The position numbers and the translations under genes are program-made. A model generated the notes under the pieces. That model ran no database searches. It saw only the letters and a list, made by a program, of their open reading frames with translations, and had not been told where the DNA came from. Shown here in pieces: positions 35,296-53,326 of a stretch of 64,000 nt of DNA. Positions within the stretch are counted from its first letter, which is position 1; every line of letters starts with the position of its first letter. Source of the DNA: Shigella phage MK-13; the sequence record MK509462. One strand, given 5' to 3'.

Positions 35296-35300
35296 CAAAC

Positions 35301-35318
35301 AAGCCCCTCCGGGGGCTT
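35301..35318 (+). terminator. hairpin aagcccc-tcc-gggggctt
   Basis: GC stem right after stop of 35029..35295, followed by CCCATTTGAA cassette. Confidence 0.45.
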
Positions 35319-35350
35319 CTGTCTCCCATTTGAATTGAAGGAACTATATC

Positions 35351-35632
35351 ATGACAACTAAAGCGCAATTGATCGAAGCCCTGAATGCTGGCGCTATCAC
35401 CCACTCTCGTTACAAAGTAACATTGCAGCAATTTGTTGGTATGGCCGTCGGAAATGCCAAATTCACCCCAATCTCTTCCCCTGAAAAATTTCCAGTTAAG
35501 GCCAGCCAGCCGAAGTTTTCGGTAGTTTGCCAGGGTGAAGAAATCACCGCTCTGTGGGAATATGATAACATGTATTTTGAATGTTCTGACGGCGTGTTAG
35601 CATACCATGTGGAAGGCGAGCATTTGTTCTAA
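35351..35632 (+). CDS. hypothetical protein
   Basis: 93-aa ORF preceded by CCCATTTGAATTGAAGGAACTATATC-ATG. Confidence 0.45.
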   Translation: MTTKAQLIEALNAGAITHSRYKVTLQQFVGMAVGNAKFTPISSPEKFPVKASQPKFSVVCQGEEITALWEYDNMYFECSDGVLAYHVEGEHLF

Positions 35633-35691
35633 ACCTTTGAACGGGGTATGTTAACCGCATACCCTATCCCCTACAAATAGAGGACTTTATC

Positions 35692-36012
35692 ATGGCTAAC
35701 AGCATCCCAATTTTAGAAGCGGTCGTAAAAGAGAACCCTCGTGCGCGCAAATCGCGTCGTCGACTGGTCACCAAGCTGGACCTTCTGAAACAGAAGTTCG
35801 GCGACCACAGTGTGTTCGCTCGTATCCGTAATGCATTAAAGGAAGGAAGAACCGAGCTGGAGCTTTATCGCCCGAACGGTTCGACACGCGCGTATCAAAC
35901 CACTGACGGCTTACTGGAACTGATCCGCCTGAGCGGGATGACAATCGAACCCCGTTCGTCAGGCACTCCTCTGTGCTCCCTGTATGTCATCGGCAATCTT
36001 GGGGCGCTGTGA
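35692..36012 (+). CDS. hypothetical basic protein
   Basis: 106-aa ORF; preceded by hairpin (ggggtatg..cataccc) and AGAGGA RBS. Confidence 0.45.
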   Translation: MANSIPILEAVVKENPRARKSRRRLVTKLDLLKQKFGDHSVFARIRNALKEGRTELELYRPNGSTRAYQTTDGLLELIRLSGMTIEPRSSGTPLCSLYVIGNLGAL

Positions 36013-36017
36013 GTTCC

Positions 36018-36440
36018 ATGAAGAAATATATCGTACTCGTTACAGGTTCCCGCTCAATCACCGAGCGGGATAAGGTATTCGCCAAGCTGGACGAACTCCT
36101 CGATCCTCATGAAGTCTATACGTTGATCGAGGGTGAGGCCACGGGTGTCGACACGATTTGCCGTGATTGGGCTGAAATCAATTATGTTCATACCACTCCT
36201 ATGCCAATCCCTCCGAGCTATTATGAAAAGTATGGGAACGGGATGGGCAACAAACGCAATCAGGACATGTTAGACAAGGCATTGGATCTCGCCAGGCAGA
36301 CCAAGCTGGAAGTGTATCCGATTGCGATGTGGGATGGTTCGTCCACTGGCACCCTGGACATGATCAACCGTTGCAAGAAAGCTGGCCTCCCTGTGGACAT
36401 CACACTGATGGGCAAGCCGAAGACCAAGCGCCTTTTGTAA
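36018..36440 (+). CDS. DUF2493 / SLOG-type Rossmann-like protein (tentative)
   Basis: ORF 35973..36440 with start ATG 36018; IVLVTGSRSITERD ... GEATGVDTICRDWA ... MWDGSSTGTLDMI pattern typical of that family; recalled from memory, not searched. Confidence 0.4.
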   Translation: MKKYIVLVTGSRSITERDKVFAKLDELLDPHEVYTLIEGEATGVDTICRDWAEINYVHTTPMPIPPSYYEKYGNGMGNKRNQDMLDKALDLARQTKLEVYPIAMWDGSSTGTLDMINRCKKAGLPVDITLMGKPKTKRLL

Positions 36441-36481
36441 CATACCATAAATAATTTGAGTTCACACAGCGGAGATACATC

Positions 36482-36649
36482 ATGTTTGTCGTCAATCTGT
36501 TCTGCTATATCTTCACGGCGTACTTCCTGGGAGCAGTAGGGTTCGAGACCTACAATGACCTGAAGGAGGGCGAATACGCCGACTGGAAGGTCTATGCCAA
36601 GAAGTTCGCTCGGAAGTTCTGGTCCAACTTCGTTTACAAACTGCCATGA
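36482..36649 (+). CDS. small membrane protein (55 aa), not in ORF track
   Basis: GGAGA RBS 7 nt before ATG 36482; hydrophobic N-terminus VVNLFCYIFTAYFLGAVGF. Confidence 0.3.
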   Translation: MFVVNLFCYIFTAYFLGAVGFETYNDLKEGEYADWKVYAKKFARKFWSNFVYKLP

Positions 36650-36653
36650 TCAC

Positions 36654-36665
36654 CTAAATACCCCC
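36654..36665 (+). promoter_or_regulatory. late-promoter-like motif CTAAATACCCCC with 5'-UTR hairpin (36658..36682)
   Basis: CTAAATAccccc then ataccccca / tgggggtat inverted repeat before ATG 36688. Confidence 0.45.
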
Positions 36666-36687
36666 ATCATCCATGGGGGTATTTTCT

Positions 36688-37416
36688 ATGAACGCACAGA
36701 TCTATGACGCCCTTGAGCAGGGCAACGCATTTAACAATCCTCTCCCGTCCCTCAGCAGCACGTCTCAGGGTTTAATCACCAGCGGCAAGGCGACTACAGC
36801 TGCACTGGCAAACACCGGAAATACGCAAATCCAGGGCGCTCTGACGGCAGGCGGTCTAACCACGGCCAAGCTCAATGAAACGAACACGATGTTCACCTCT
36901 GCCAACACCAGCCTCACCACGCTGAACAACTATGGTGATCAGACTGTGAACGAAGCGTATTCCCGCATCGGGACTTCCGTGTCGTACAAATCTGGCCTGA
37001 AGTCAATCGAGCGCGAGCCGACCAACTGTGATCTGATCAATAATGCCTTCGGCGTCATACAGACTCTTGGGCGCCAGTGGATCGGCGCTATGGAGGGCGC
37101 TCTCAGCACTGTTACCGCCAAGATGGCCGAACTGGCTGAGTTAGTTGCGCAGGGTGTGAGCGCTGGCCTGGCAAAGATCCAGGCGCTGGCCGCCGAAGTT
37201 ACCGGATATATCAACGATGCTATTGCTCAGGTGGCGCAAATCGGTCAGGATATCGCCAATGGTATTGCCTCAGAGTTGGCCCACATCCAAGACATGGTCA
37301 GCAAGTGTCTGAACTTCTCGTTCGCCAATGTACTGTCTGAGTGGGCTAAAGACCTGTGCGCTGGTGGTGTTATCAACAACATCGGTTCTGATAATCTGAA
37401 GAGCGCCCTGAAGTAA
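36688..37416 (+). CDS. hypothetical late protein (Ala/Thr/Gln-rich, possibly structural)
   Basis: ORF 36673..37416; start ATG 36688 downstream of late-type promoter/hairpin. Confidence 0.45.
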   Translation: MNAQIYDALEQGNAFNNPLPSLSSTSQGLITSGKATTAALANTGNTQIQGALTAGGLTTAKLNETNTMFTSANTSLTTLNNYGDQTVNEAYSRIGTSVSYKSGLKSIEREPTNCDLINNAFGVIQTLGRQWIGAMEGALSTVTAKMAELAELVAQGVSAGLAKIQALAAEVTGYINDAIAQVAQIGQDIANGIASELAHIQDMVSKCLNFSFANVLSEWAKDLCAGGVINNIGSDNLKSALK

Positions 37417-44279: not shown

Positions 44280-44744
44280 ATGGCGCGCAATACGCTAGAC
44301 ATATTGAACATTTCAGCCGTCAACGATGAGGCCAGCATCGTTGATTGTATGGTTGAAGTTCAATTGAACCAAGATCGGCCAGGAATATTCCTGGGGATCA
44401 AGGAAACACTGAGCCGAATTGGGGTAAACACGCGCCAAGAGCCGAATACTCTGTATCAGACTTGTCATATTCTTCACAAGTATGGCAAGTATTATATCGT
44501 CCACTTCAAGCATCTGTTTATGCTGGACGGGCATTACAACGGGTTTAACCGCGAAGATGTCCTGAGGATGAACCGCATCATCAAGCTGCTCGAGCAGTGG
44601 AATATGGTGAAGGTCATTCATCCCGAGCAGGTCACCGAAGCCGCCGATATGTCACGCATTAAAGTGGTTAAACACGATCAGGTTCCTGAATGGAAGCTGG
44701 TTCCAAAATACATTATCCGGCCTACAAAGGCCAAAAGCGAATAA
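44280..44744 (+). CDS. regA: RegA translational repressor
   Basis: LYQTCHILHKYGKYYIVHFKHLFMLDG and EWKLVPKYIIRP match T4 RegA LYQSCHILQKKGLYYIVHFKEMLRMDG and EWKLVPKYTIG. Confidence 0.8.
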   Translation: MARNTLDILNISAVNDEASIVDCMVEVQLNQDRPGIFLGIKETLSRIGVNTRQEPNTLYQTCHILHKYGKYYIVHFKHLFMLDGHYNGFNREDVLRMNRIIKLLEQWNMVKVIHPEQVTEAADMSRIKVVKHDQVPEWKLVPKYIIRPTKAKSE

Positions 44745-44760: not shown

Positions 44761-45630
44761 ATGACAACTACATTTTCTAAGAACGTGAATCTGAATCTGG
44801 CTTTCGGTAATGCAAAGGGCGATGTCACATCGCCCGACTTTGGTAAGATCCGCAATCAGGCGAAACTGGTGCTGGAAGAGACCCGTGAACTGTTGGAGGC
44901 GGCGTACTACGATTGCGATGTGAAACTGGATCTGGTGCTCACACCTAAACAAGAACCTTACCAGACCAGAACCATTCAGGAAATCCTGAAGGATATCATG
45001 GACGCCCAGGGTGATATCACCACTGTCAACGACGGTGTGGCTCATATTGCTGGTTTCGACGGTGACGAATGCTTACAGCGCGTGTATGCCTCTAACATGA
45101 GCAAGTTCATTCGTAATGAAGGTGAAGTTGTGCCTGCACTGGATTACTACTACAACAAAGGCTTCCCACGCGAAAGTCTGCGCATCGAAGGGGAATTCCC
45201 CCAGGCGTGCATCAAAGTGGTAGACACCATCACCGTCGACGGCAAAGAGTACCCGGCTGGTAAGTTCCTGAAGAACATGGCAACCTTCAAAGAGCCGGAC
45301 TTCAGTGATATGCTGACCACCGAGCCTAAGCGCCAGATCACCGAAATCATTCTGACGGGCACGGCTACCCCAGGTCGACTCGGATGCAACGAACACGCTG
45401 GTGTTGCCTTCGCTCCGTTCGACTTTGTTGACGAGATCGTGGGATACACCAAGATGGGCTTCCAGGCGTTCTCTGGCGAAACAGTCGAGAGTTATATTCC
45501 CGTGTTTGTTTTCAATGAAGACAACTTCCCAACTCTACCGTTGATCTGGGGTGAATGGAAAGCCAACGTCCGTATCTATGTGGCCAGCCCAGTGCAATCA
45601 TCTATCACCCAGCTGACCCGTATCGATTAA
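44761..45630 (+). CDS. hypothetical protein
   Basis: 289-aa ORF; no recognised motif. Confidence 0.45.
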   Translation: MTTTFSKNVNLNLAFGNAKGDVTSPDFGKIRNQAKLVLEETRELLEAAYYDCDVKLDLVLTPKQEPYQTRTIQEILKDIMDAQGDITTVNDGVAHIAGFDGDECLQRVYASNMSKFIRNEGEVVPALDYYYNKGFPRESLRIEGEFPQACIKVVDTITVDGKEYPAGKFLKNMATFKEPDFSDMLTTEPKRQITEIILTGTATPGRLGCNEHAGVAFAPFDFVDEIVGYTKMGFQAFSGETVESYIPVFVFNEDNFPTLPLIWGEWKANVRIYVASPVQSSITQLTRID

Positions 45631-45699
45631 GATATACAGTTATTCACTAAACAACAGAGGCTATAATGGCCTCTGTTTTTCGTATTCTAAGAGGATACC

Positions 45700-46920
45700 A
45701 TGAAAGATAAAGCCCTGGACGTCCCGTACTGCGGTGTCCGTGAAGAAAAGATAAAGTCGGCCAAACCGGTTCTCAGTCCGACCCATACCCGCCTTTCTTA
45801 CGAATGGATGAGCGAGCGCTATAAGATCCACGTCAAGAAGGACGTCCAGCGTCTTCCTGCTCCTTGGACGAATAATCCTATACTACGGCAGGTCAAGTTC
45901 TGTAACGTCCGGAGAGAGCACGACAGGCAGTCTCTTAACCTGATCAACAACATCGTCAACAACGATGCTCTGGGTATGGCAGACAAGATGTTTAACTGCG
46001 TGCTGTTCCGCATGTTCAACCTCTGGGATCCGATCCAGGCTATCGGCGGCGCGATGGCGATCAAAGAATTCGCCAAGATCAACCTTGACGCAACCCGCGA
46101 ACGACTTCAGAAGTTCGAGGCCGACGGCGGCAAGGTGTTCACCAATGCCTTCAACACAGGCGGCCTGAAGCAATGCCTGGCTTTCCCTGAGCTGGTTGTC
46201 AACCACAAAGAGCAGCGCTTCGGTGGGATGATGGTGAACCTGATCTGTAAGGACGGTTCGACCCAGAACATGGATTATAAGGAAGCCAAGGCTATTGCTG
46301 AAGCAGAGCCGGACTTCTACACCATAGAAGGCTGGGAGCCGTACATGCCAATGCGTGTCATCCGTTCCCTGAAGGCATTCGTCAACAAGTATCCAAATTA
46401 CTTCCATGACCTACTGCGCCTTGGTACTCCTCTGGAAGTATACCAGCGCATGTACGACGACATCGAAGGTCTTGGTCCATTCCTGGCCTATCAGATCTGG
46501 GTTGATTTCACGTACATGCCTGGTTATCCGTTCAGTGAGAACCACTTCACGATCGCCGGACCGGGCTGTCGCGCAGGTATTGATCTGCTGTTCCTGAACA
46601 AGGACGGCATGACTCACGAAGAATGCATATTCTGGCTACGGGATAATCAGGACGCAGTATACTCCCAATATGGGTATGTTCGCGAGCAATTCTGGTCGGC
46701 CGAAGAGCCTGTAGACCAATGCATGAACGTTATGCAGCTGGAGAACATGTTCTGTGAACTGAGCAAGTACACTCGCTGTGTTGAGGCGGTTGGGCGCGGT
46801 GAAAAACCTCGGGGCAAGGTCAGCTATGACGGCGGTGGGGAATACAAAAAGCGCTGTGATGAAGTCGTGCTCAAACGTGGTTCCGTCAATTTGCTGGACC
46901 GTTTGAAGAAACCTGAATAA
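45700..46920 (+). CDS. hypothetical protein (406 aa, enzyme-sized)
   Basis: Long clean ORF with AGAGGA-like RBS; no motif recognised by eye. Confidence 0.45.
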   Translation: MKDKALDVPYCGVREEKIKSAKPVLSPTHTRLSYEWMSERYKIHVKKDVQRLPAPWTNNPILRQVKFCNVRREHDRQSLNLINNIVNNDALGMADKMFNCVLFRMFNLWDPIQAIGGAMAIKEFAKINLDATRERLQKFEADGGKVFTNAFNTGGLKQCLAFPELVVNHKEQRFGGMMVNLICKDGSTQNMDYKEAKAIAEAEPDFYTIEGWEPYMPMRVIRSLKAFVNKYPNYFHDLLRLGTPLEVYQRMYDDIEGLGPFLAYQIWVDFTYMPGYPFSENHFTIAGPGCRAGIDLLFLNKDGMTHEECIFWLRDNQDAVYSQYGYVREQFWSAEEPVDQCMNVMQLENMFCELSKYTRCVEAVGRGEKPRGKVSYDGGGEYKKRCDEVVLKRGSVNLLDRLKKPE

Positions 46921-47035
46921 AGATTCCCTTTACTTCATTCTTCAATAACTTTTTTCAACGTATTATTGACCTCACTTAAACGAAGCGCCCTGGCAAACGG
47001 GGCGCACATTTGAACTGAAACAGGAAGACTACATC

Positions 47036-49054
47036 ATGTCAGAATTTAAGCCCTTCGCAGTAGCCGTAAACAATAATGTGCTGGCCATGTCAGCAACTGG
47101 TCTGTTCATGACCAACATCGATAAAGATGCTCTGTGGGATCTGTACCTGAACTCTTTCCCTGCTGGCACCAACCCGCTCTACCGTGAGCGCACCGAGCAC
47201 GACTGCACCTGCTGTAAACAATTCATCCGTAACATCGGCGGTGTGGTGACCATCGACGCCGACCTGAACGTGATCTCTATCTGGGATAACATTCAGCTGG
47301 GTAACGAATACGACGTTGTCGCTGCGGCGCTGTCTGCGTATGTCAAGCAACACGCAATCGTCGACGTGTACTTCAACGATACCAAGAAAGTCGGTGTTGA
47401 GTCGAATCACGAAATGAAAGACGGTAATGTCCGCACCTACAACCACTTCCACACCGACCTGCTGCCCAGCTATGTTCTGCGGGCTGATGCCATCGCTTCT
47501 AAGAAGGGTGAAATCCGCCAGGCGATTGAAGTGTTTGAGCGCGGCCTGCGTGAACTGTCTCTGGAATCGGCCGAAATCGTTCTGGAACTGATTGATCAGA
47601 ATTCTCTGTATCGTGGTGAAGAGCACAAAGCTGCTGTGCAGGCGTTCGTGACGAGCAAGACCATGTACGAACAAACTGCAGAAGAGAAACGCGCTCTGTG
47701 GGCTTGGCGTACTGGCTACCGTGCAAACGGACACACCCCTCACGGCATCCGCAATACCGTGATTGGCTCTCTGTTGGTAGACCTCAATGAAGGTCGGGAT
47801 CTGGAAACCGCCGTGAAGTCCTTTGAAGCCAAAGTCGCTCCGACGAACTACAAGCGCCCAACCGCGCTGGTCACGAAGTCCATGATTGAAAACGCGCAGA
47901 AAGAAGTCGAAGCGCTGGGTCTGACTGATTCACTGGGTCGCCGTTATGCCGTGTATGACGATCTGACCATCAACAACGTTTTGTTTGCCGACCTGGCAGC
48001 ACAGAAGAAGATGGACCCGTTTGCTCAGCTGGCGTCTGAAGTGAAGACTCCGACCAAGTCCCTGGACAAGGTTGAAGAGATCACCATCGACGACTTCCTG
48101 ACCAACGTGTTGCCAAAGGCGCATTCCCTGGAAGTGCTGGTTGAGAACTCTCACACTGGCAACCTGATGTCCCTGATCGCCCCGGCTACGGTGGGTGCTC
48201 CTAACCTGTTCAAGTGGAACAACGGCTTCAGCTGGTCATACAATGGCGAAGTGGCCGACTCCATCAAAGAGCGCGTGAAGACAGCAGGCGGCAACGTCGA
48301 CAGCTTCCTCCGTGTGTCGCTGGCGTGGCATAACAACGACGACCTGGATCTGAGCCTGAACGATCCTCTTCACAACCACGTGTATTTCAACAACCGTCGT
48401 TCGGCAACTGGTGCAACCCTGGACATCGACATGAACGGTATGGACGGTATTGACCCGAACCGCCGTCCGGTGGAGAACATCTTCTTCAGCGATGAACGCA
48501 AGCTGCGTGACGGGAACTATGAGTTCTATGTCACCAACTACAGCAAGCGCGAAACCTGCGATGTGGGCTTCGAAATCGAAGTTGAATACAAAGGCCAGAC
48601 CAAGCGCTTCTCGCATCCTGGTCTGGGTAACAAAGACCGCACGTTGGCTGTTGTGGTTCAGGTACGCGCTGGTCAGGTGGTCGACATCAGTTCTACCCTG
48701 AAAGACGACGCTCGCTCTCAGGAAATCTGGGGCATCAAGACCTCCGTCTTCCAGAAGGTACAGCTGGTTCTGAACTCACCAAACCATTGGGACGGCGAGC
48801 AGACGGGCAACAAGCACGTGTTCTTCATCCTGGAAGGTTGTGCTAACCCTGTCGGCACCCGTGGCTTCTACAACGAATATCTGAAGCCGGAACTTGATAA
48901 ACACCGCAAGGTTTTTGAAATGTTAGGTGGTAAGATTAAAGTACAGCCAAGCACTGAGCAGCTGTCCGGTCTGGGCTTCTCTACCACCCAACGCAACCAC
49001 GTGTTCGTGAAGGTGAGCGGCTCGTTCAACCGCACTGTGAAAGTTGTGTTCTAA
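47036..49054 (+). CDS. hypothetical protein (672 aa)
   Basis: Preceded by hairpin + ACATTTGAACTGAAACAGGAAGACTACATC-ATG cassette; no motif recognised. Confidence 0.5.
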   Translation: MSEFKPFAVAVNNNVLAMSATGLFMTNIDKDALWDLYLNSFPAGTNPLYRERTEHDCTCCKQFIRNIGGVVTIDADLNVISIWDNIQLGNEYDVVAAALSAYVKQHAIVDVYFNDTKKVGVESNHEMKDGNVRTYNHFHTDLLPSYVLRADAIASKKGEIRQAIEVFERGLRELSLESAEIVLELIDQNSLYRGEEHKAAVQAFVTSKTMYEQTAEEKRALWAWRTGYRANGHTPHGIRNTVIGSLLVDLNEGRDLETAVKSFEAKVAPTNYKRPTALVTKSMIENAQKEVEALGLTDSLGRRYAVYDDLTINNVLFADLAAQKKMDPFAQLASEVKTPTKSLDKVEEITIDDFLTNVLPKAHSLEVLVENSHTGNLMSLIAPATVGAPNLFKWNNGFSWSYNGEVADSIKERVKTAGGNVDSFLRVSLAWHNNDDLDLSLNDPLHNHVYFNNRRSATGATLDIDMNGMDGIDPNRRPVENIFFSDERKLRDGNYEFYVTNYSKRETCDVGFEIEVEYKGQTKRFSHPGLGNKDRTLAVVVQVRAGQVVDISSTLKDDARSQEIWGIKTSVFQKVQLVLNSPNHWDGEQTGNKHVFFILEGCANPVGTRGFYNEYLKPELDKHRKVFEMLGGKIKVQPSTEQLSGLGFSTTQRNHVFVKVSGSFNRTVKVVF

Positions 49055-49098
49055 ACCTGATTTGAAATTGTAACCCATTCATCATTGAGGATAGTAAA

Positions 49099-49470
49099 AT
49101 GTTTGATAAAGCAACCCGTCTGAAACTGCGCTTCGAATCCAACAAAGGTCTGCTGTCTGTTGAGCAGGTCTGGGATCTGAGCCTGACTGCCCTGAACGAA
49201 ATGGCGAAAAGCCTGAGCCGTCAGGTGAAGGCAGCGGAAACCGATGAAGAAGATTTCATCGGCACCAAAAGCAACGTTGACTCCGAACTGCAGCTGCGCT
49301 TCGACGTTGTCAAGCACATCATCGGCGTTAAGCTGAAAGAGCGTGACGACAGCAAAGACGCGGCAGAGCGTAAGGCGAACAACCAGGTTATCCTGGAGCT
49401 GATCCAGCGTAAGAAACAGCAGGAGCTGGAAGGCAAATCTGTTGAAGAACTGGAAGCGCTGCTGAAATAA
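49099..49470 (+). CDS. hypothetical protein
   Basis: 123 aa, charged helical protein; GAGGA RBS. Confidence 0.4.
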   Translation: MFDKATRLKLRFESNKGLLSVEQVWDLSLTALNEMAKSLSRQVKAAETDEEDFIGTKSNVDSELQLRFDVVKHIIGVKLKERDDSKDAAERKANNQVILELIQRKKQQELEGKSVEELEALLK

Positions 49471-49485: not shown

Positions 49486-49513
49486 AACCCCGCCATGTGC
49501 GGGGTTTCTTTTG
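49486..49513 (+). terminator. rho-independent terminator (aaccccgc-catgt-gcggggtt + TCTTTTGG)
   Basis: 8-bp GC stem plus T-run after 49099..49470. Confidence 0.6.
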
Positions 49514-49523
49514 GACAAAGAAT

Positions 49524-49925
49524 ATGAAACCTGTCATCTGTGATTACTGCGGCCTCCCAGCCGAATTCGTCGGTGGTGACGTCCTCCACCCTCATCGCCC
49601 TGACCTCCGCAATCTGAAGTTCTGGGTATGCACTCCATGTGGCGCTCGCGTCGGTTGCCATGCCCATGGCGACGGTAGACAACCTCTGGGAAGGATGGCG
49701 AATGCCGCTCTCCGTGCCGAGAAGCGAAAAGCCCATAGATCGTTTGACCCATTGTGGAAAAGCGGAGAGAGGAGCAGGAGCGACGCTTACAGTTGGCTGG
49801 CGCATAAGCTGGGGATCAAGAAGCGTGATTGCCATATCGGCTTGTTCGATATCGACATGTGCCGTAAAGTAGTTGTTGTATGCAACCAATTACGGGAAAC
49901 ACAGAATGGCAACCATCAATCGTAA
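49524..49925 (+). CDS. zinc-ribbon protein (two CxxC pairs)
   Basis: ORF 49497..49925 truncated to ATG 49524 (downstream of terminator); CDYCG...CTPCG motif. Confidence 0.4.
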   Translation: MKPVICDYCGLPAEFVGGDVLHPHRPDLRNLKFWVCTPCGARVGCHAHGDGRQPLGRMANAALRAEKRKAHRSFDPLWKSGERSRSDAYSWLAHKLGIKKRDCHIGLFDIDMCRKVVVVCNQLRETQNGNHQS

Positions 49926-50700
49926 TGAACCCAAAGGTGTTGAGCTGAAGGGTAAATCTGTTCGCGAAGGTCTGAAGCTGTCTCCAGACCTCCTGAAGTC
50001 CCACATTGCTGAAGTCATCTATGAAGACCGTGAAGTCGGTGGTCATCGTGTCATCACCTGCCATTTCAAGATGGACAACGGCTTTGTCGTCTTTGGTAAG
50101 AATAGCTCTACTTCCATCGACCCTGCCAACTTTGATGAAGAGTTGGGCAAGAAGCTGGCCTATGACAAGACTTTCTCCCAGTTGTGGGAACTGGAAGCCT
50201 ACCGCGCCGTTGTGGAGAAGCAGATGTTGGAGGTGGCTACCGCCGATGCGAAGATAGACATTTTCCAGTACATCTTCGAAAGGGGGAAGATAAACCAGAT
50301 GGCTGGTATGGCATTCTTGAAAGGTCATAGCCAGTCTTTCGTGTTCCATCATCCACGAGACCCAAGTCGCGGATTCGGTGCTGAATTTATTCATACCGAC
50401 AACGAACTTCACAATGACCAACACAACAGCAAAGTCCAGGCCAGAGTGGAAACATATTTGCGTTCACACATGCGGCCTGATGAACTGTATTCTGAACTCG
50501 TTGTTCGCCTGGCCAAGACTTGCACGGCGGCTTACAAGGGTGGGATCTACTTTAATGCCACCACTTGGGATAAGATGAGCGCCGAAGAGCAGAAAGGCTG
50601 CTGTGAAGACATTAGGCGGCTCTTGCTGGCTCCGGCGGATTATATCCCAACCGACCAGAAGGACGCGCTGTTCAAGGCCATCGTCGATTCCTACAAATAA
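49906..50700 (+). CDS. protein with N4 gp49 / Sf6 gp66-like N-terminal domain (tentative)
   Basis: ORF 49873..50700, ATG 49906; HRVITCHFKMDNGFVVFGKNSSTSIDPANFDEELGKKLAY...LWELEAYR resembles that family; from memory. Confidence 0.4.
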   Translation: MATINRNEPKGVELKGKSVREGLKLSPDLLKSHIAEVIYEDREVGGHRVITCHFKMDNGFVVFGKNSSTSIDPANFDEELGKKLAYDKTFSQLWELEAYRAVVEKQMLEVATADAKIDIFQYIFERGKINQMAGMAFLKGHSQSFVFHHPRDPSRGFGAEFIHTDNELHNDQHNSKVQARVETYLRSHMRPDELYSELVVRLAKTCTAAYKGGIYFNATTWDKMSAEEQKGCCEDIRRLLLAPADYIPTDQKDALFKAIVDSYK

Positions 50701-50810: not shown

Positions 50811-51665
50811 ATGTTTCGTTTGAAATTGAACGACCAAGATGTGTTCTACAAACACTTCACCTTCCCAGGTGGTGAGGAACATATCAAGATCCAAAAGTCT
50901 GGTATCCCTATCGGCCACGTCCAGAACGTGGCGATTGATGCTCACATCAAATCATCAGCCGACTTCGTTGAGCTGGCACTGCTGGTTAACGCCGTGCGCG
51001 GCCTGGGTAACGTGGACCGTCTGACGACCTTCCATGCGTATATCCCTTACTTCCCGTATGCTCGCCAGGACCGCCATTGCGACTTCGGCGAGCCTCTGTC
51101 CGTGAAGTGGGCGGCTGAGTTCATCAATAGCATGAACTTTGACCGCGTGGCGATCAAAGACCCTCACAGCCATGTTGTGTCTTCTCTTATCAACAACGTC
51201 CATGTGGTCCCGCAAGATTACATCGTGCGGCAGTATCTGGGCTGGTTCATCCGTGGGAACAACGCTGTGTTGGTAGCCCCTGACGGCGGCGCGGCTAAGA
51301 AGACCGAAGCCCTCAGCCTGTCTCTGGATGGCGTTCCTGTTGTCTACGGACACAAGAACCGTGACGCCAAGACTGGTGAGATCATTGGGGTGAGTATTAC
51401 AACCCCTGAACTGATCAAAGACCGTTATCTGGTGGTGGTCGATGATATCTGCGACGGTGGGCGCACGTTCGTTGAGTTAGGCAAAGAGCTTCAGAAGCAC
51501 AAGCCCAAACACATGACGCTCTTCGTTACCCATGGCATCTTCAGCAAAGGGCTTTCCGTGTTCGACGGGATCTACGATGCTGTGTATGCCGACACTGTCT
51601 GGTGGGAGAATATCACCGCCGACGGTCTTCCTTTCAAAACTGAAAATACAGGACGTGTAAAATGA
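50811..51665 (+). CDS. prs: ribose-phosphate pyrophosphokinase (PRPP synthetase, Prs)
   Basis: AYIPYFPYARQDRH matches Prs signature IPYFGYARQDR; PRPP-binding loop VVVDDICDGGRT matches VDDMIDTGGT. Confidence 0.75.
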   Translation: MFRLKLNDQDVFYKHFTFPGGEEHIKIQKSGIPIGHVQNVAIDAHIKSSADFVELALLVNAVRGLGNVDRLTTFHAYIPYFPYARQDRHCDFGEPLSVKWAAEFINSMNFDRVAIKDPHSHVVSSLINNVHVVPQDYIVRQYLGWFIRGNNAVLVAPDGGAAKKTEALSLSLDGVPVVYGHKNRDAKTGEIIGVSITTPELIKDRYLVVVDDICDGGRTFVELGKELQKHKPKHMTLFVTHGIFSKGLSVFDGIYDAVYADTVWWENITADGLPFKTENTGRVK

Positions 51666-53326
51666 GCATGCGCCACTTAGACCCAATCCATGCAATCGAC
51701 TTCTACAAATCAGGGCACATCTATCAGTTCCCTGAAGGCAGCGAGCTGGTGTTCTCCAACGGAACTCCGCGCTCCAACAAACTGTTCAACTCTCACCTGC
51801 CGAAGAACGGCGTGGTGGTCTGGGGCATCCAGGGTTTCATGACTTGGTTCCATGAACTGTTTGACGAAGCATTCTTCCAGCGCCCGAAGGCCAAGGTGTT
51901 GAAGAAGTATGCCCGTCGCATGAACAAAGTCCTGGGTCCAGGCCGCGTCGGCACAGAGCATATTGAAGCCCTGCATGACCTCGGCTACCTGCCTATCGAA
52001 GTCCGCGCGCTGCCTGAAGGCACCATGTGCCCGTATGGCGTTCCGGTGTATGTGATGTTCAACACCCTGCCGGAGTTCTACTGGCTGACCAACTATCTGG
52101 AGACTGTGTTCAGCTCTGAGATCTGGAAGCCGATGACGAACGCCACTATCGCTCTGCATTACAAGGCACTGATGGTGAAAGCTGCCCTCGCTACAGGCGT
52201 GTCACCGGACCATTGGTTCATCGACTACCAAGGCCACGACTTCTCCTTCCGTGGCATGAGCGGGTGGCATGACGCGGCGTCTTCCGGTTCCGGTCATCTG
52301 GTGTTCTTCAAAGGCACCGATACCAACCCTGCCCTGGACTTCGTTGAAGAGTATTATGGCGCAGACATCGACGAAGACTATGTCGTTGCTGGCTCCGTTG
52401 CGGCTACAGAACACGCCGTGATGTGTATGGGTACGAAGGATGGTGAATTCGAAACCTTCCGCCGCCTGGTGCAGGACGTGTATCCTGATGGCATCGTCAG
52501 CATCGTGTCTGATGCGTGGGATTACTGGCAGGTCATCGACGACTATCTCCCTCGCCTGAAAGATATTATCATGGCGCGTAACGGTAAAGTCGTGATCCGC
52601 CCTGACTCGGGCGACCCAGTTCATATCGTCGGCGGCTACCGCATTGAGGGGTTCAAAGACCGCGCCACGCTGAACATCAGCGGCGTGTCTAGCAGCACTG
52701 AAGTCATTCACATCGAAGAGACGAACACCTATCACCTGATCACAGGCGAAGGCACGATCAACTCTCTGATGGCAGACGACCGTAATATCATCAGCCGTTC
52801 TGAAGCAGTCGGCTCTATCCAGCGACTGTGGGAGATCTTTGGCGGTACTCAAACTGAAACTGGCCACTTCCTGTTGGACGAACACATCGGTCTGATCTAC
52901 GGTGACTCCATCACCCTGGCGCGTGAAGACCAGATCTTTAGCCGTCTGGCTGGCCGGAACTTCGCTTCCATCAACGTGGTGTTCGGTATCGGTTCCTACA
53001 CCTACCAGATGAACACCCGTGACAGTACTGGCACGGCGGTGAAAGCAACGGCTGGTAAGGTGAACGGTGAATTCCGTGAGATCTTCAAAGAGCCGAAGAC
53101 CGACAAAGGCGGGACTAAAAAGTCTGCGCGTGGTTTCCTTAAAGTCATTAAAGACTCTCAGGGTAAACTAGTGTTGGTTGACGGTATCACCTTTGATCAG
53201 GTGCAAGACGCCGACAACCAGCACCAGCTGGTGTATCGTGATGGCAAGTTCTTCAACACTCAAACTCTGGAAGATGCGCGTGTCCGCGCCGCTCCTCTGG
53301 TAGCAGAACTGGCATCACAAATCTGA
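51662..53326 (+). CDS. nadV: nicotinamide phosphoribosyltransferase (NadV / NAMPT)
   Basis: HDFSFRGMSG...GHLVFFKGTDT...GSVAATEHAV corresponds to NAMPT HDFGYRGVSS...AHLVNFKGTDT...SVPAAEHST; ATGA overlap with prs. Confidence 0.8.
   Translation: MSMRHLDPIHAIDFYKSGHIYQFPEGSELVFSNGTPRSNKLFNSHLPKNGVVVWGIQGFMTWFHELFDEAFFQRPKAKVLKKYARRMNKVLGPGRVGTEHIEALHDLGYLPIEVRALPEGTMCPYGVPVYVMFNTLPEFYWLTNYLETVFSSEIWKPMTNATIALHYKALMVKAALATGVSPDHWFIDYQGHDFSFRGMSGWHDAASSGSGHLVFFKGTDTNPALDFVEEYYGADIDEDYVVAGSVAATEHAVMCMGTKDGEFETFRRLVQDVYPDGIVSIVSDAWDYWQVIDDYLPRLKDIIMARNGKVVIRPDSGDPVHIVGGYRIEGFKDRATLNISGVSSSTEVIHIEETNTYHLITGEGTINSLMADDRNIISRSEAVGSIQRLWEIFGGTQTETGHFLLDEHIGLIYGDSITLAREDQIFSRLAGRNFASINVVFGIGSYTYQMNTRDSTGTAVKATAGKVNGEFREIFKEPKTDKGGTKKSARGFLKVIKDSQGKLVLVDGITFDQVQDADNQHQLVYRDGKFFNTQTLEDARVRAAPLVAELASQI

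Follow-up and report, generated by a model that had tools for sequence, protein, structure and literature searches.

The interval from 44761 to 49054 of Shigella phage MK-13 (record MK509462, of which a window of 64,000 nucleotides was analyzed) probably comprises three independent functional units rather than one pathway block: ORF2, assigned by its sequence to a family linked to thymidine hypermodification, ORF1, a predicted MazG-type pyrophosphohydrolase, and ORF3 together with its downstream partner, ORF4. We regard these units as separate because terminator-like hairpins follow ORF1 and ORF4, and because homologs of ORF1 and ORF3 are absent from the hypermodification clusters of Vibrio phage D495, PaMx11 and M6, all of which contain a member of the ORF2 family. 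The first hairpin, between ORF1 and ORF2 (45653..45677, + strand), was found by a consensus scan and a reading of the sequence, and has an 11-bp stem followed by TTTTCGTATT. The second, found by consensus scan directly after ORF4 (49486..49506, + strand), has an 8-bp stem with 6 GC pairs and a T-rich tail. Both are candidate intrinsic terminators identified purely by pattern match; Caulobacter phage Karma has an annotated rho-independent terminator directly after its ORF4 homolog.

The window derives from an Agtrevirus (Ackermannviridae) with 98.9% identity to Salmonella phage P46FS4. The ViI pathway genes are conserved within this genus (PMC10458263), in agreement with the ViI-like context considered by a sequence-only reading of this DNA, and gp226 homologs are present in all four Shigella Agtrevirus records. 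As that reading reported, three ORFs follow regA, at 44761-45630 (289 aa), 45700-46920 (406 aa) and 47036-49054 (672 aa), all on the + strand; each has hundreds to thousands of homologs, and they are therefore real genes rather than chance ORFs. The RegA gene (44280-44744; Pfam Translat_reg, 1.9e-34) lies upstream of ORF1 and is preceded by clamp-loader genes, as in T4, and GC content varies little here (0.48-0.56). The NAD module before which the genes had been placed does exist, with a ribose-phosphate pyrophosphokinase-type gene (50811-51665) and a NAPRTase-family gene (51662-53326), but it is not directly adjacent to ORF3 because three genes intervene: ORF4, one for a DUF3268 zinc-finger protein (49497-49925) and one of the Phage_gp49_66 family (49873-50700).

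The same reading called the three genes uncharacterised, which holds only in part. All three are already catalogued and the ORF2 type is already described: RefSeq names the orthologs of ORF1, Pfam detects ORF2 (273 bits), and the Agtrevirus ortholog of ORF2 has been named aGPT-Pplase1 in print (PMC10458263). Of the kinase, the transferase and the PLP enzyme that the reading had proposed to look for, none is encoded by these three genes. The broader proposal that they are candidates for the hypermodification pathway stands for ORF2, is plausible for ORF1, and fails for ORF3, which is carried by phages that lack the pathway.

The MazG-like protein encoded by ORF1

Profile comparisons place the ORF1 product (44761..45630, + strand) in the all-alpha NTP pyrophosphohydrolase superfamily, which includes the MazG, PRA-PH and DR2231 types. 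The protein belongs to phrog_2144, 'MazG-like pyrophosphatase' (1.2e-131), the name that RefSeq also gives to its orthologs, and is 59.9% identical to its ViI ortholog Vi01_131c (orf00161). Its distant relatives match the Pfam families PRA-PH (30 of 70), MazG-like (16) and MazG (12). ORF1 itself has no direct Pfam match, and its AF2 model (pLDDT 81), in which residues 4-132 form a helical bundle, has no significant Foldseek match. The predicted catalytic domain spans approximately residues 1-135 and is followed by a conserved beta segment extending to about residue 190 and a C-terminal beta domain (about 195-289) that is lineage-specific and present in most Ackermannviridae. Residues E40, E43, D81, D85, K168 and K171 are invariant.

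The closest solved relative of the N-terminal domain is the MazG-like protein DR2231 of Deinococcus radiodurans (PDB 2yeu and others), which the ORF1 family profile matches at E=1e-8 and whose acidic helix motifs align with those of ORF1. DR2231 is 138-154 aa in length, whereas ORF1 adds the beta segment bearing K168 and K171 and a C-terminal domain of about 100 aa. DR2231 cleaves dUTP (PMC5122711), a substrate specificity that cannot be transferred to ORF1. ORF1 would most likely cleave a pyrimidine dNTP to dNMP and PPi in a Mg2+-dependent reaction and thereby shape the dNTP pool. Such a role as a dNTP-pool enzyme is plausible and could serve the pre-replicative branch of hypermodification, but ORF1 is not specific to that pathway.

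A more specialized role is possible, though doubtful, in which ORF1 is the dTTPase/dUTPase of the pathway, removing dTTP to favor the incorporation of 5-hmdUTP and supplying dUMP. The pathway needs such an activity, which has been demonstrated for gp18 of Acinetobacter phage SH-Ab 15599, a pyrimidine dNTP pyrophosphatase that feeds a 5-hmdU pathway (PMC13458397). Both the superfamily of ORF1, with its dUTP-cleaving relative, and the adjacency of ORF1 and ORF2 in those Ackermannviridae records that were examined are consistent with this role. However, ViI-like phages encode two further all-alpha NTP pyrophosphohydrolases. One of them, a dUTPase_2-family protein encoded in the thyA-like/dNMP-kinase/gp67 cluster of ViI and D495, is a better match than ORF1 to the published description of gp18, for which a dimeric dUTPase/dCTP-pyrophosphatase-like fold is given. 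In addition, N4-like and other phages that are not known to hypermodify their DNA also carry the catalytic domain of ORF1.

ORF2 and the clade-1 family

Sequence comparison shows ORF2 (45700..46920, + strand) to be a member of the aGPT-Pplase clade-1 family, which is paralogous to the amino-acid:DNA transferases, and to be orthologous to gp160 of ViI. It matches the Pfam family HMUDK_hel (PF18723) at 3e-81 and 273 bits (the cut-off is 25), and its full-length identity to Vi01_130c/orf00160 (gp160) of ViI, a phage of a sister genus, is 83.5% over 407 aa. Both proteins match PF18723, and the gene order regA, MazG-like gene, gp160 is common to the two phages; we found no substantive difference between them. 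Lee et al. 2018 (PMC5889632) list ViI gp160 as aG/PT-PPlase1 and note it as a gene confined to phages that hypermodify thymidine. In D495 the family member lies between genes for the kinase, the ADDT protein and the dUMP hydroxymethylase, and in PaMx11 and M6 it directly follows the kinase gene. ORF2 is linked to post-replicative thymidine hypermodification. The five-lysate mix that reconstituted 5-NeOmdU included gp160 (PMC5889632). Published reconstitutions have made the hypermodified base without need for the clade-1 protein, which is dispensable in vitro for kinase and transferase activity, and gp160 does not appear in the 2021 list of characterized enzymes (PMC8989533). In the literature searched, no reaction or biochemical activity is assigned to any clade-1 protein.

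Clade-2 aGPT-Pplases (Pfam ADDT), which include ViI gp247, M6 gp51, PaMx11 gp46 and the DADT of phage 15599, co-occur with clade 1 in individual phages, and the two clades have been described as paralogs of HhH glycosylase-like fold. ORF2 is a helical protein, and the fold predicted for its family in the literature is HhH/DNA-glycosylase-like. The serine:DNA transferase of ViI is gp247, and this role was rejected for ORF2; amino-acid transfer proceeds in vitro without clade 1. ORF2 has no match to the ADDT model, and its similarity to clade 2 lies at the edge of detection: hhalign gave E=0.009 (score 28.3) in one run and a score of 20.9 in another, compared with 12.0-19.7 for 30 column shuffles.

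The candidate active site of ORF2 is the motif ENMFCELSKY (residues 348-357; 46741..46770, + strand), or E-x3-C-E-x2-K-Y, in which E348, C352, E353, K356 and Y357 are invariant among 21 clade-1 sequences that include M6 gp55 and PaMx11 gp50. The C-E-x2-K-Y core is kept in gp55 of the Microbacterium phage Pikmin. Hhalign aligned E348 and C352 with E243 and C247 of PaMx11 gp46, where C247 is the catalytic cysteine of a solved structure (PMC11472151). The common Glu-x3-Cys...Lys motif provides the nucleophile and the metal site in clade 2, whose metal ligands fall within the same motif as the catalytic Glu and Cys (PMC13458397). A second, hairpin-like motif, GLGPFLAYQ (residues 257-265; 46468..46494, + strand), contains F261 and Y264, which, like D269 just downstream, are invariant in two alignments. 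With weak alignment statistics, hhalign placed it on the 'FGPWIGFK' segment of gp46 that carries Trp146 (PMC11472151). In the same weak alignment, Asp175 of gp46, a residue that contacts the base, falls within the ORF2 segment 'IAGPGC'. In the mechanism that we infer, ORF2 would bind phage DNA after replication and flip 5-hydroxymethyl-dU or 5-phosphomethyl-dU into a pocket, where the invariant Cys352 with Glu348 would carry out the C6 Michael-addition/exocyclic-methylene chemistry demonstrated for clade 2 (gp247, M6 gp51, PaMx11 gp46).

Alternatively, ORF2 might assist the kinase without being catalytic itself, for instance as a subunit that binds DNA or confers sequence-context specificity and so chooses the 5-hmdU to be phosphorylated. 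The kinase-then-clade-1 order in M6 and PaMx11, the dispensability of the clade-1 protein in vitro, the dependence of hypermodification on sequence context (PMC13458397), and the fusion in Bacillus phage SP10 gp186 of a 5-HMUDK to a clade-1 domain, which forms its C-terminal half (PMC5889632 Table 3), agree with this reading, and the renaming of the Pfam family as a kinase 'helical domain' may imply it. We consider it unlikely, since the Cys/Glu/Lys/Tyr motif shows no variation among phages of hosts from Salmonella to Pseudomonas, is retained as a core in the Microbacterium phage, and matches the catalytic motif of clade 2. Furthermore, in ViI-like phages the gene adjoins neither kinase gene. 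ORF2 is a stand-alone protein, unlike the gp186 fusion. That ORF2 is itself a 5-hmdU DNA kinase, a naive reading of the Pfam description ('5-hmdU DNA kinase, helical domain') and of the SP10 fusion, has almost no chance of being right: ORF2 is without a P-loop domain and therefore not a kinase, matching no P-loop family in Pfam and neither HMUDK_HMUD1 nor HMUD2, the models matched by the verified ViI kinases gp67 and gp243, which are encoded elsewhere in the genome, and the kinase domain of SP10 is active on its own (PMC8989533).

The ORF3-ORF4 module

ORF3 (47036..49054, + strand) encodes a multi-domain protein that matches phrog_1735 at E=0 and carries the precomputed Pfam tag PF26675; it has more than 5,400 homologs, all of about 670 aa. 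The AF2 model has a pLDDT of 85 and a pTM of 0.50, and neither fold (Foldseek) nor sequence comparison yields a significant PDB match. The cysteine cluster HDCTCCKQF picked out by eye in the earlier reading corresponds to residues 55-63 (47198..47224, + strand) and is indeed conserved: across 82 homologs D56 is invariant, and the conservation of C57 and C60 is 90% or higher. H137 is likewise invariant in the homolog alignment, and the cluster is a possible metal site. The names given to a few relatives would make ORF3 a DNA-directed RNA polymerase or a TerD-type tellurium-resistance protein. This identification draws on GenBank product names in Shigella phage ChubbyThor and for BIS47_256 of Klebsiella phage BIS47, on a BFVD entry, similar in length, that is named 'tellurium resistant like', and on an acidic DLDL...LDIDMNG pattern seen by eye, but is highly improbable. 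ORF3, whole or by domain, has no Pfam, NCBIfam, PADLOC or PDB sequence match, its model has no significant Foldseek match in the PDB, and when residues 415-560 were compared by hhalign with a validated TerD sequence, the score (12.4) fell within the shuffled range (7.5-19.6).

ORF4 (49099..49470, + strand; 123 aa) lies beyond the interval and matches phrog_2018 (4.2e-48). It has a conserved N-terminal 'F-x2-A-x-R-x-K-x2-F...G...DL' segment followed by a charged helical tail. ORF3 and ORF4 are full-length members of their respective families; PHROG labels both 1735 and 2018 'unknown function', no function is recorded for either, and the literature searched holds no mention of them or of their pairing. 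The pair spans four phage groups and is found, besides here, in ViI, Karma, Bacillus phage BCP78 and BIS47. In bacterial and archaeal genomes, all 75 assessable loci (75 of 75), those with room for it, have an ORF4 homolog downstream of the ORF3 homolog and in the same orientation, at a median gap of 19 bp, and across 80 bacterial and archaeal loci ORF4 is the only conserved neighbor. ORF3 and ORF4 thus constitute a self-contained, strongly conserved and obligate two-gene module.

The distribution of this module bears directly on whether ORF1, ORF2 and ORF3 are all thymidine-hypermodification enzymes encoded in one block. Their adjacency on one strand in a phage of a genus with the ViI pathway, and the place of ORF2 in the pathway gene set, would fit such a block. 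This arrangement is very unlikely and largely refuted by the phyletic pattern: the wide occurrence of ORF3 with ORF4, the presence of the ORF1 catalytic domain in N4-like and other phages, and the compact clusters of D495, PaMx11 and M6, which have an ORF2 homolog but none of ORF1 or ORF3. No clear unrelated function emerged for ORF3, but its relatives at 40-52% identity are found in Vequintavirinae, Caulobacter, Bacillus Bastille-like, cyanophage, jumbo and other phages, and many phages and proviruses without a hypermodification pathway carry it, always paired with ORF4. The ORF3-ORF4 pair is carried by many unrelated phages, by bacterial proviruses and by assemblies assigned to archaea, and is not tied to thymidine hypermodification.

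Source genus and gene order of the locus

Three large genes following regA in Shigella phage MK-13 had been proposed, from sequence and context alone, as candidate thymidine-hypermodification enzymes of a ViI-like phage. Our analysis separates them: the proposal holds for ORF2, the ortholog of ViI gp160, is possible for ORF1, a probable dNTP pyrophosphohydrolase, and fails for ORF3, which belongs to a gene pair that is widespread beyond known hypermodifiers. ORF1 (44761-45630, 289 aa), ORF2 (45700-46920, 406 aa) and ORF3 (47036-49054, 672 aa) were all found on the plus strand as the sequence-only reading described them, and base composition is uniform over the region. Genes of the gp44 and gp62 clamp-loader types and then the RegA gene lie upstream of ORF1, and gene order up to regA is indeed that of T4. 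The clamp-loader genes are preceded by a 222-aa ORF that occupies the position of the gp45 sliding-clamp gene of ViI (Salmonella phage Vi01) and has no Pfam match. The NAD module lies further downstream, beyond three more genes: ORF4 (49099-49470, 123 aa), a DUF3268 zinc-finger gene (49497-49925, 142 aa), and a Phage_gp49_66 gene with the N4 gp49 / Sf6 gp66 domain (49873-50700, 275 aa). The latter two ORFs, as listed, share 53 bases, so that one of the two start codons probably lies further downstream. The module itself consists of a ribose-phosphate pyrophosphokinase-type gene (Pribosyltran_N + Pribosyltran, 50811-51665) and a NAPRTase-family (NAMPT-like) gene (51662-53326, 554 aa) that overlap by 4 bases; this pair (50811-53326) is described in a review as variable among Agtrevirus genomes (PMC11721090).

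Sequence identity over the 5.4-kb stretch is 98.9% with Salmonella phage P46FS4 and 96-98% with SKML-39 and with Shigella phage Ag3, which assigns the window to Agtrevirus of the Ackermannviridae and bears out the description as ViI-like. As sequence features the three genes are thus nothing new: the stretch closely duplicates published Agtrevirus genomes, ORF1, ORF2 and ORF3 are all in family databases already, and the ORF2 ortholog has been named in print. The remaining interest lies in the role of the family to which ORF2 belongs and in the role of the ORF3-ORF4 pair. None of the three proteins gave a match in NCBIfam or PADLOC. The T4-type late promoter TATAAATA has zero occurrences in the window, and a scan counted fewer sigma-70-like sites than it did in shuffled sequence. 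Terminator-like hairpins were located by a consensus scan after ORF1 and after ORF4, with none between ORF3 and ORF4. A GC-rich hairpin (46985-47005; GCGCCC, 9-nt loop, GGGCGC) in the 115 bp that separate ORF2 from ORF3 lacks a clear T-run and escaped the terminator scan.

ORF1 and the all-alpha NTP pyrophosphohydrolases

ORF1 matches phrog_2144, 'MazG-like pyrophosphatase' (1.2e-131), and is 59.9% identical to ViI orf00161. The protein itself has no direct Pfam match; 70 aligned relatives yielded 58 Pfam matches to PRA-PH, MazG-like or MazG. When the family profile was searched against the PDB, the only match was Deinococcus DR2231 (1e-8), a protein that hydrolyses dUTP (PMC5122711) and whose acidic helix motifs line up with those of the profile. 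By these matches ORF1 can be placed among the all-alpha NTP pyrophosphohydrolases, the superfamily of MazG, PRA-PH and dimeric dUTPase. The acidic residues of the metal-binding type (EExxE ... E/DxxD) are conserved on two helices: all 70 sequences share E40, E43, D81 and D85, which fall on predicted helices 27-48 and 72-97. The second acidic motif of ORF1 reads DxxxD, whereas that of DR2231 reads ExxD, one residue out of register in the HMM alignment. The structural model comprises a helical bundle (residues 4-132), then beta elements, and finally a C-terminal domain modelled at low confidence, and a Foldseek search of the PDB with it returned nothing at E <= 0.001. These features argue that ORF1 is probably a dNTP pyrophosphohydrolase.

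Close relatives of ORF1 that match over the full length are almost all Ackermannviridae and related enterobacterial-phage sequences, and in an exhaustive representative search residues 1-190 proved common to a wide range of 150-400-aa proteins. The catalytic domain alone is also encoded by N4-like phages of Klebsiella and Pectobacterium and by Pseudomonas phages, and is therefore no marker of the hypermodification pathway. ViI-like phages possess two other all-alpha NTP-PPases. An NTP-PPase of the dUTPase_2 family clusters with thyA-like, dNMP-kinase and gp67 genes in ViI and Vibrio phage D495 and, compared with ORF1, is the better candidate for the dTTPase/dUTPase role demonstrated in phage 15599.

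The ORF3-ORF4 pair

ORF3 is a full-length member of phrog_1735 (E=0) with over 5,400 homologs of about 670 aa bearing the precomputed Pfam tag PF26675. Vequintavirinae, Caulobacter phiCbK-like and Bacillus Bastille-like phages, jumbo phages of Acinetobacter and Pseudomonas, and a Microcystis phage carry homologs 40-52% identical to ORF3; most of these phages are not known hypermodifiers. The cysteine cluster picked out by eye in ORF3 (HDCTCCKQF, residues 55-63) is real and conserved, with D56 invariant and C57 and C60 each at 90% or above. An AF2 model is locally confident (pLDDT 85) and multi-domain (pTM 0.50). Neither Foldseek comparison of this model with the PDB (E <= 0.001) nor sequence and family-profile searches of the PDB found anything, the matches in BFVD were uncharacterised viral proteins only, and a per-domain Pfam scan at E <= 10 gave only noise. 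A TerD domain at residues 415-560 was rejected: against a query confirmed as TerD by Pfam, the hhalign score of 12.4 fell within the shuffled range, and Pfam TerD was not matched at E=10. Literature searches on PF26675 or phrog_1735 found no paper.

Several records treat this gene irregularly. The orthologs in BIS47 and ChubbyThor are named 'DNA-directed RNA polymerase', a name to which our searches give no support. In the ViI record the ortholog appears as two separate CDS, 183 and 491 aa long (Vi01_128c and Vi01_129c, 35300-37319 of the ViI locus L002), both with the note orf00158; since the two pieces are collinear with the 672-aa ORF3 in tblastn, the split reflects either a frameshift or a sequencing error of the record. 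Fragments of the ortholog are also present in Dickeya phage records.

ORF4 matches phrog_2018 (4.2e-48), the family of ViI Vi01_127c, and in Caulobacter phage Karma, Bacillus phage BCP78 and Klebsiella phage BIS47 the ORF3 homolog is directly followed by a phrog_2018 gene of 129-140 aa. Scanning prokaryotic genomes, one per species, identified 80 loci with an ORF3 homolog at 35-49% identity, from Proteobacteria, Firmicutes, relatives of Cyanobacteria, CPR bacteria and Spirochaetes, and, among archaea, from Methanobrevibacter, Thorarchaeota and Promethearchaeota MAGs. Each of the 75 loci with enough downstream sequence has a same-strand ORF4 homolog downstream of the ORF3 homolog, at a median gap of 19 bp; in 69 of them it is immediately adjacent. 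Overall, the pair (47036-49470 of the window) is seen in four unrelated phage groups and at all 75 assessable bacterial and archaeal loci at 35-52% identity (comparison loci L008, L009, L010 and L011-L090). This genomic context is the one solid new fact on ORF3. Apart from the pair itself, no family of neighbours is seen at more than 7 of the 80 loci; apparent extra neighbour 'families' were antisense ORFs within ORF3. Karma has a terminator annotated at the position equivalent to the hairpin after ORF4. The ORF4 family profile gave a single, non-significant match in the PDB, and no paper on the pairing was found.

ORF3 and ORF4 constitute an obligate pair, phrog_1735 / PF26675 with phrog_2018. 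The constant ORF4 partner, the absence of any other shared neighbour and the placing of the terminator-like hairpins lead us to regard the two genes as a self-contained portable unit, one unrelated to ORF1 and ORF2. Its conservation is unusually strong (37-52% identity), spanning phages of Salmonella, Bacillus and Caulobacter as well as elements in archaeal MAGs, and it represents a common, portable and uncharacterised viral function, with neither a recognisable fold match nor constant neighbours.

ORF2 and the role of aGPT-Pplase clade 1

ORF2 matches the Pfam family PF18723, HMUDK_hel, over profile positions 4-278 of 281 (273.3 bits with a cut-off of 25; 3e-81) and shares 83.5% identity with ViI gp160 along its entire length. 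The ViI gene order, regA, MazG-like gene, gp160, orf00158, orf00155 and orf00153, is that of the window, and ORF2 also aligns with PaMx11 gp50, whose own HMUDK_hel match is 5.6e-41. By these matches ORF2 can be placed in aGPT-Pplase clade 1, the HMUDK_hel family. Because the Pfam name ('5-hmdU DNA kinase, helical domain') is misleading, the studied ViI proteins were mapped onto the ViI record by matching the gp numbers of Lee et al. to its 'orf000NN' notes. The verified kinase gp67 (220 aa) adjoins the thyA-like gene and belongs to Pfam HMUDK_HMUD1, while gp243 belongs to HMUD2, the serine:DNA transferase gp247 to ADDT (clade 2, the amino-acid:DNA transferases), and gp160 to HMUDK_hel. The equation of ORF2 with gp67 that the Pfam name invites is ruled out, since gp67 falls in another family and lies next to thyA; the P-loop kinase HMMs HMUDK_HMUD1 and HMUD2 do not match ORF2, whereas they match ViI gp67 and gp243. 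An ADDT-type amino-acid:DNA transferase was likewise rejected: HMUDK_hel is the sole match of ORF2, and the ADDT model, matched by ViI gp247, a 403-aa protein of D495 and PaMx11 gp46, does not match it. ORF2 is, in short, a functionally unassigned clade-1 paralog that its Pfam name wrongly suggests to be a kinase. Single-sequence and family-profile searches of the PDB with ORF2 found nothing; the search of PDB sequences with ViI gp247 was also empty, and we take the solved clade-2 structures to be too divergent for HMMER.

The names given to these genes vary between sources. In the report on Agtrevirus SW16-7, which is 96.5% identical to the window, the ORF2 ortholog is already called aGPT-Pplase1 (PMC10458263), and several GenBank records use the same name; the newer UniRef name is '5-hmdU DNA kinase helical domain-containing protein'. 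ORF2 orthologs in Klebsiella virus vB_KpnM-20 are named 'phospholipid-lipopolysaccharide ABC transporter'. RefSeq names the verified 5-hmdU DNA kinases ViI gp67, PaMx11 gp49 and M6 gp54 'terminase small subunit' and gp243 'guanylate kinase'. None of these three names is supported by our searches. The mislabelled kinase genes lie in the comparison loci L001 (38203-38865), L006 (5393-5962), L007 (11686-12249) and L004 (620-1534). The clade labels of M6 are swapped between two papers: Table 3 of PMC5889632 gives gp51 as PPlase1 and gp55 as PPlase2, and PMC8989533, together with our alignments, gives gp51 as clade 2 (ADDT) and gp55 as clade 1.

Previous work describes gp160 as the 'aG/PT-PPlase1' of Lee et al. 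2018, of a gene class found only in thymidine-hypermodifying phages, and it was among five lysates that jointly rebuilt 5-NeOmdU (PMC5889632). The 2021 follow-up assigned activities to the kinases gp67 and gp243, to gp247 (O-serinyl transfer) and to the PLP decarboxylase gp226, and gave none to gp160; with M6 proteins, kinase gp54 and clade-2 gp51 sufficed for glycine transfer when gp55 was omitted (PMC8989533). Both papers claim a helix-hairpin-helix, DNA-glycosylase-like fold for clade 1 (PMC5889632, PMC8989533). Our literature searches found no assigned activity for the clade.

The neighbours of clade-1 genes tie the family to hypermodification. In D495 the ORF2 homolog (46% identical) lies in a block with genes for DNA polymerase, an HMUD2 kinase, ADDT, a thymidylate-synthase homolog, a dNMP kinase and dUTPase_2. 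Genes for 5-HMUDK, dUMP hydroxymethylase and clade 2 are present in ViI and cluster with the clade-1 family in D495, PaMx11 and M6; all three have been reported for SW16-7 (PMC10458263). A clear clade-1 gene (1798-2676 of locus L091; E=6e-23) was detected in the 39-kb actinophage Pikmin, of Microbacterium, with an HMM built without Pikmin sequence. A ThyX gene and a 'thymidylate kinase' lie nearby, and within the 7.6 kb around it HMMs detected neither a clade-2 transferase nor an HMUD1-type kinase gene, which hints at a possible natural case of clade 1 working without clade 2.

The 64-kb window contains no homologs of gp67, gp226, gp243, gp247 or the thyA-like gene, and in ViI these genes are dispersed round the genome. 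The SW16-7 list comprises kinases, both aGPT-Pplases and the thymidylate-synthase homolog, with the PLP enzyme absent (PMC10458263), perhaps because ViI gp226 scores 30.7 bits against Pfam PALP, under the 35-bit threshold. By tblastn, 345 records contain gp226 homologs; among them are all four Shigella (Agtrevirus) phages and also Escherichia phage ZQ1, the corresponding region of which is 93% identical to the window. Given these homologs and the SW16-7 gene list, the whole ViI-type pathway is expected in Shigella phage MK-13.

A serious rival to an enzymatic role is that ORF2 serves as a non-catalytic partner of the kinase. The clade-1 gene gp50 of PaMx11 is located after kinase gp49 and before the hydroxymethylase, gp55 of M6 comes next after kinase gp54, and in SP10 the clade-1 domain and the kinase form one fusion protein. 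On the side of catalysis stands the motif E348-N-x-F-C352-E353-x2-K356-Y357, invariant in 21 clade-1 sequences; the invariance extends to a hairpin, GPF-x-A-Y (residues 258-264, with D269), and to the segment R-R-E-x-D-R. In PaMx11 gp46, a solved clade-2 protein, the nucleophile Cys247 attacks C6 of the flipped base (PMC11472151), and in the phage 15599 enzyme the Glu-Thr of this same motif, 'ET-x2-C', serve as metal ligands (PMC13458397). By hhalign, E348 and C352 of ORF2 align on E243 and C247 of gp46 at scores (28.3 and 20.9 in two runs) barely above those of column-shuffled controls (12.0-19.7). Homology of the two clades has support in the literature, and the match to the catalytic Glu and Cys of gp46 is suggestive. 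We infer that ORF2 is an active Cys-dependent enzyme on 5-hmdU or 5-PmdU in DNA.

With the apparent catalytic Cys/Glu of the amino-acid:DNA transferases retained, ORF2 is the obvious candidate for the unexplained step or steps of the pathway, such as the formation of canonical T from 5-hmdU or the control of sequence context. Virion DNA of thymidine-hypermodifying phages is free of 5-hmdU, the rest being canonical T (PMC8989533). In the literature that we found, no enzyme is named for the conversion of 5-hmdU to canonical T, which makes clade 1 the obvious candidate for it. The step itself has reportedly been known since work on PhiW-14 in 1980-81. That ORF2 and gp160 are the missing enzyme that returns non-hypermodified 5-hydroxymethyl-dU to ordinary thymidine on the DNA polymer nevertheless seems to us rather unlikely. 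On this thymidine-restoring reading, Cys352 would attack C6 of 5-phosphomethyl-dU and phosphate would be expelled to leave an exocyclic methylene, which would receive a hydride instead of an amino acid. If true, such a reaction would explain why clade 1 and the kinase occur together in the hypermodifying phages examined, why clade 1 is dispensable in vitro for making the hypermodified base, and why M6 gp51 with borohydride yields thymidine.
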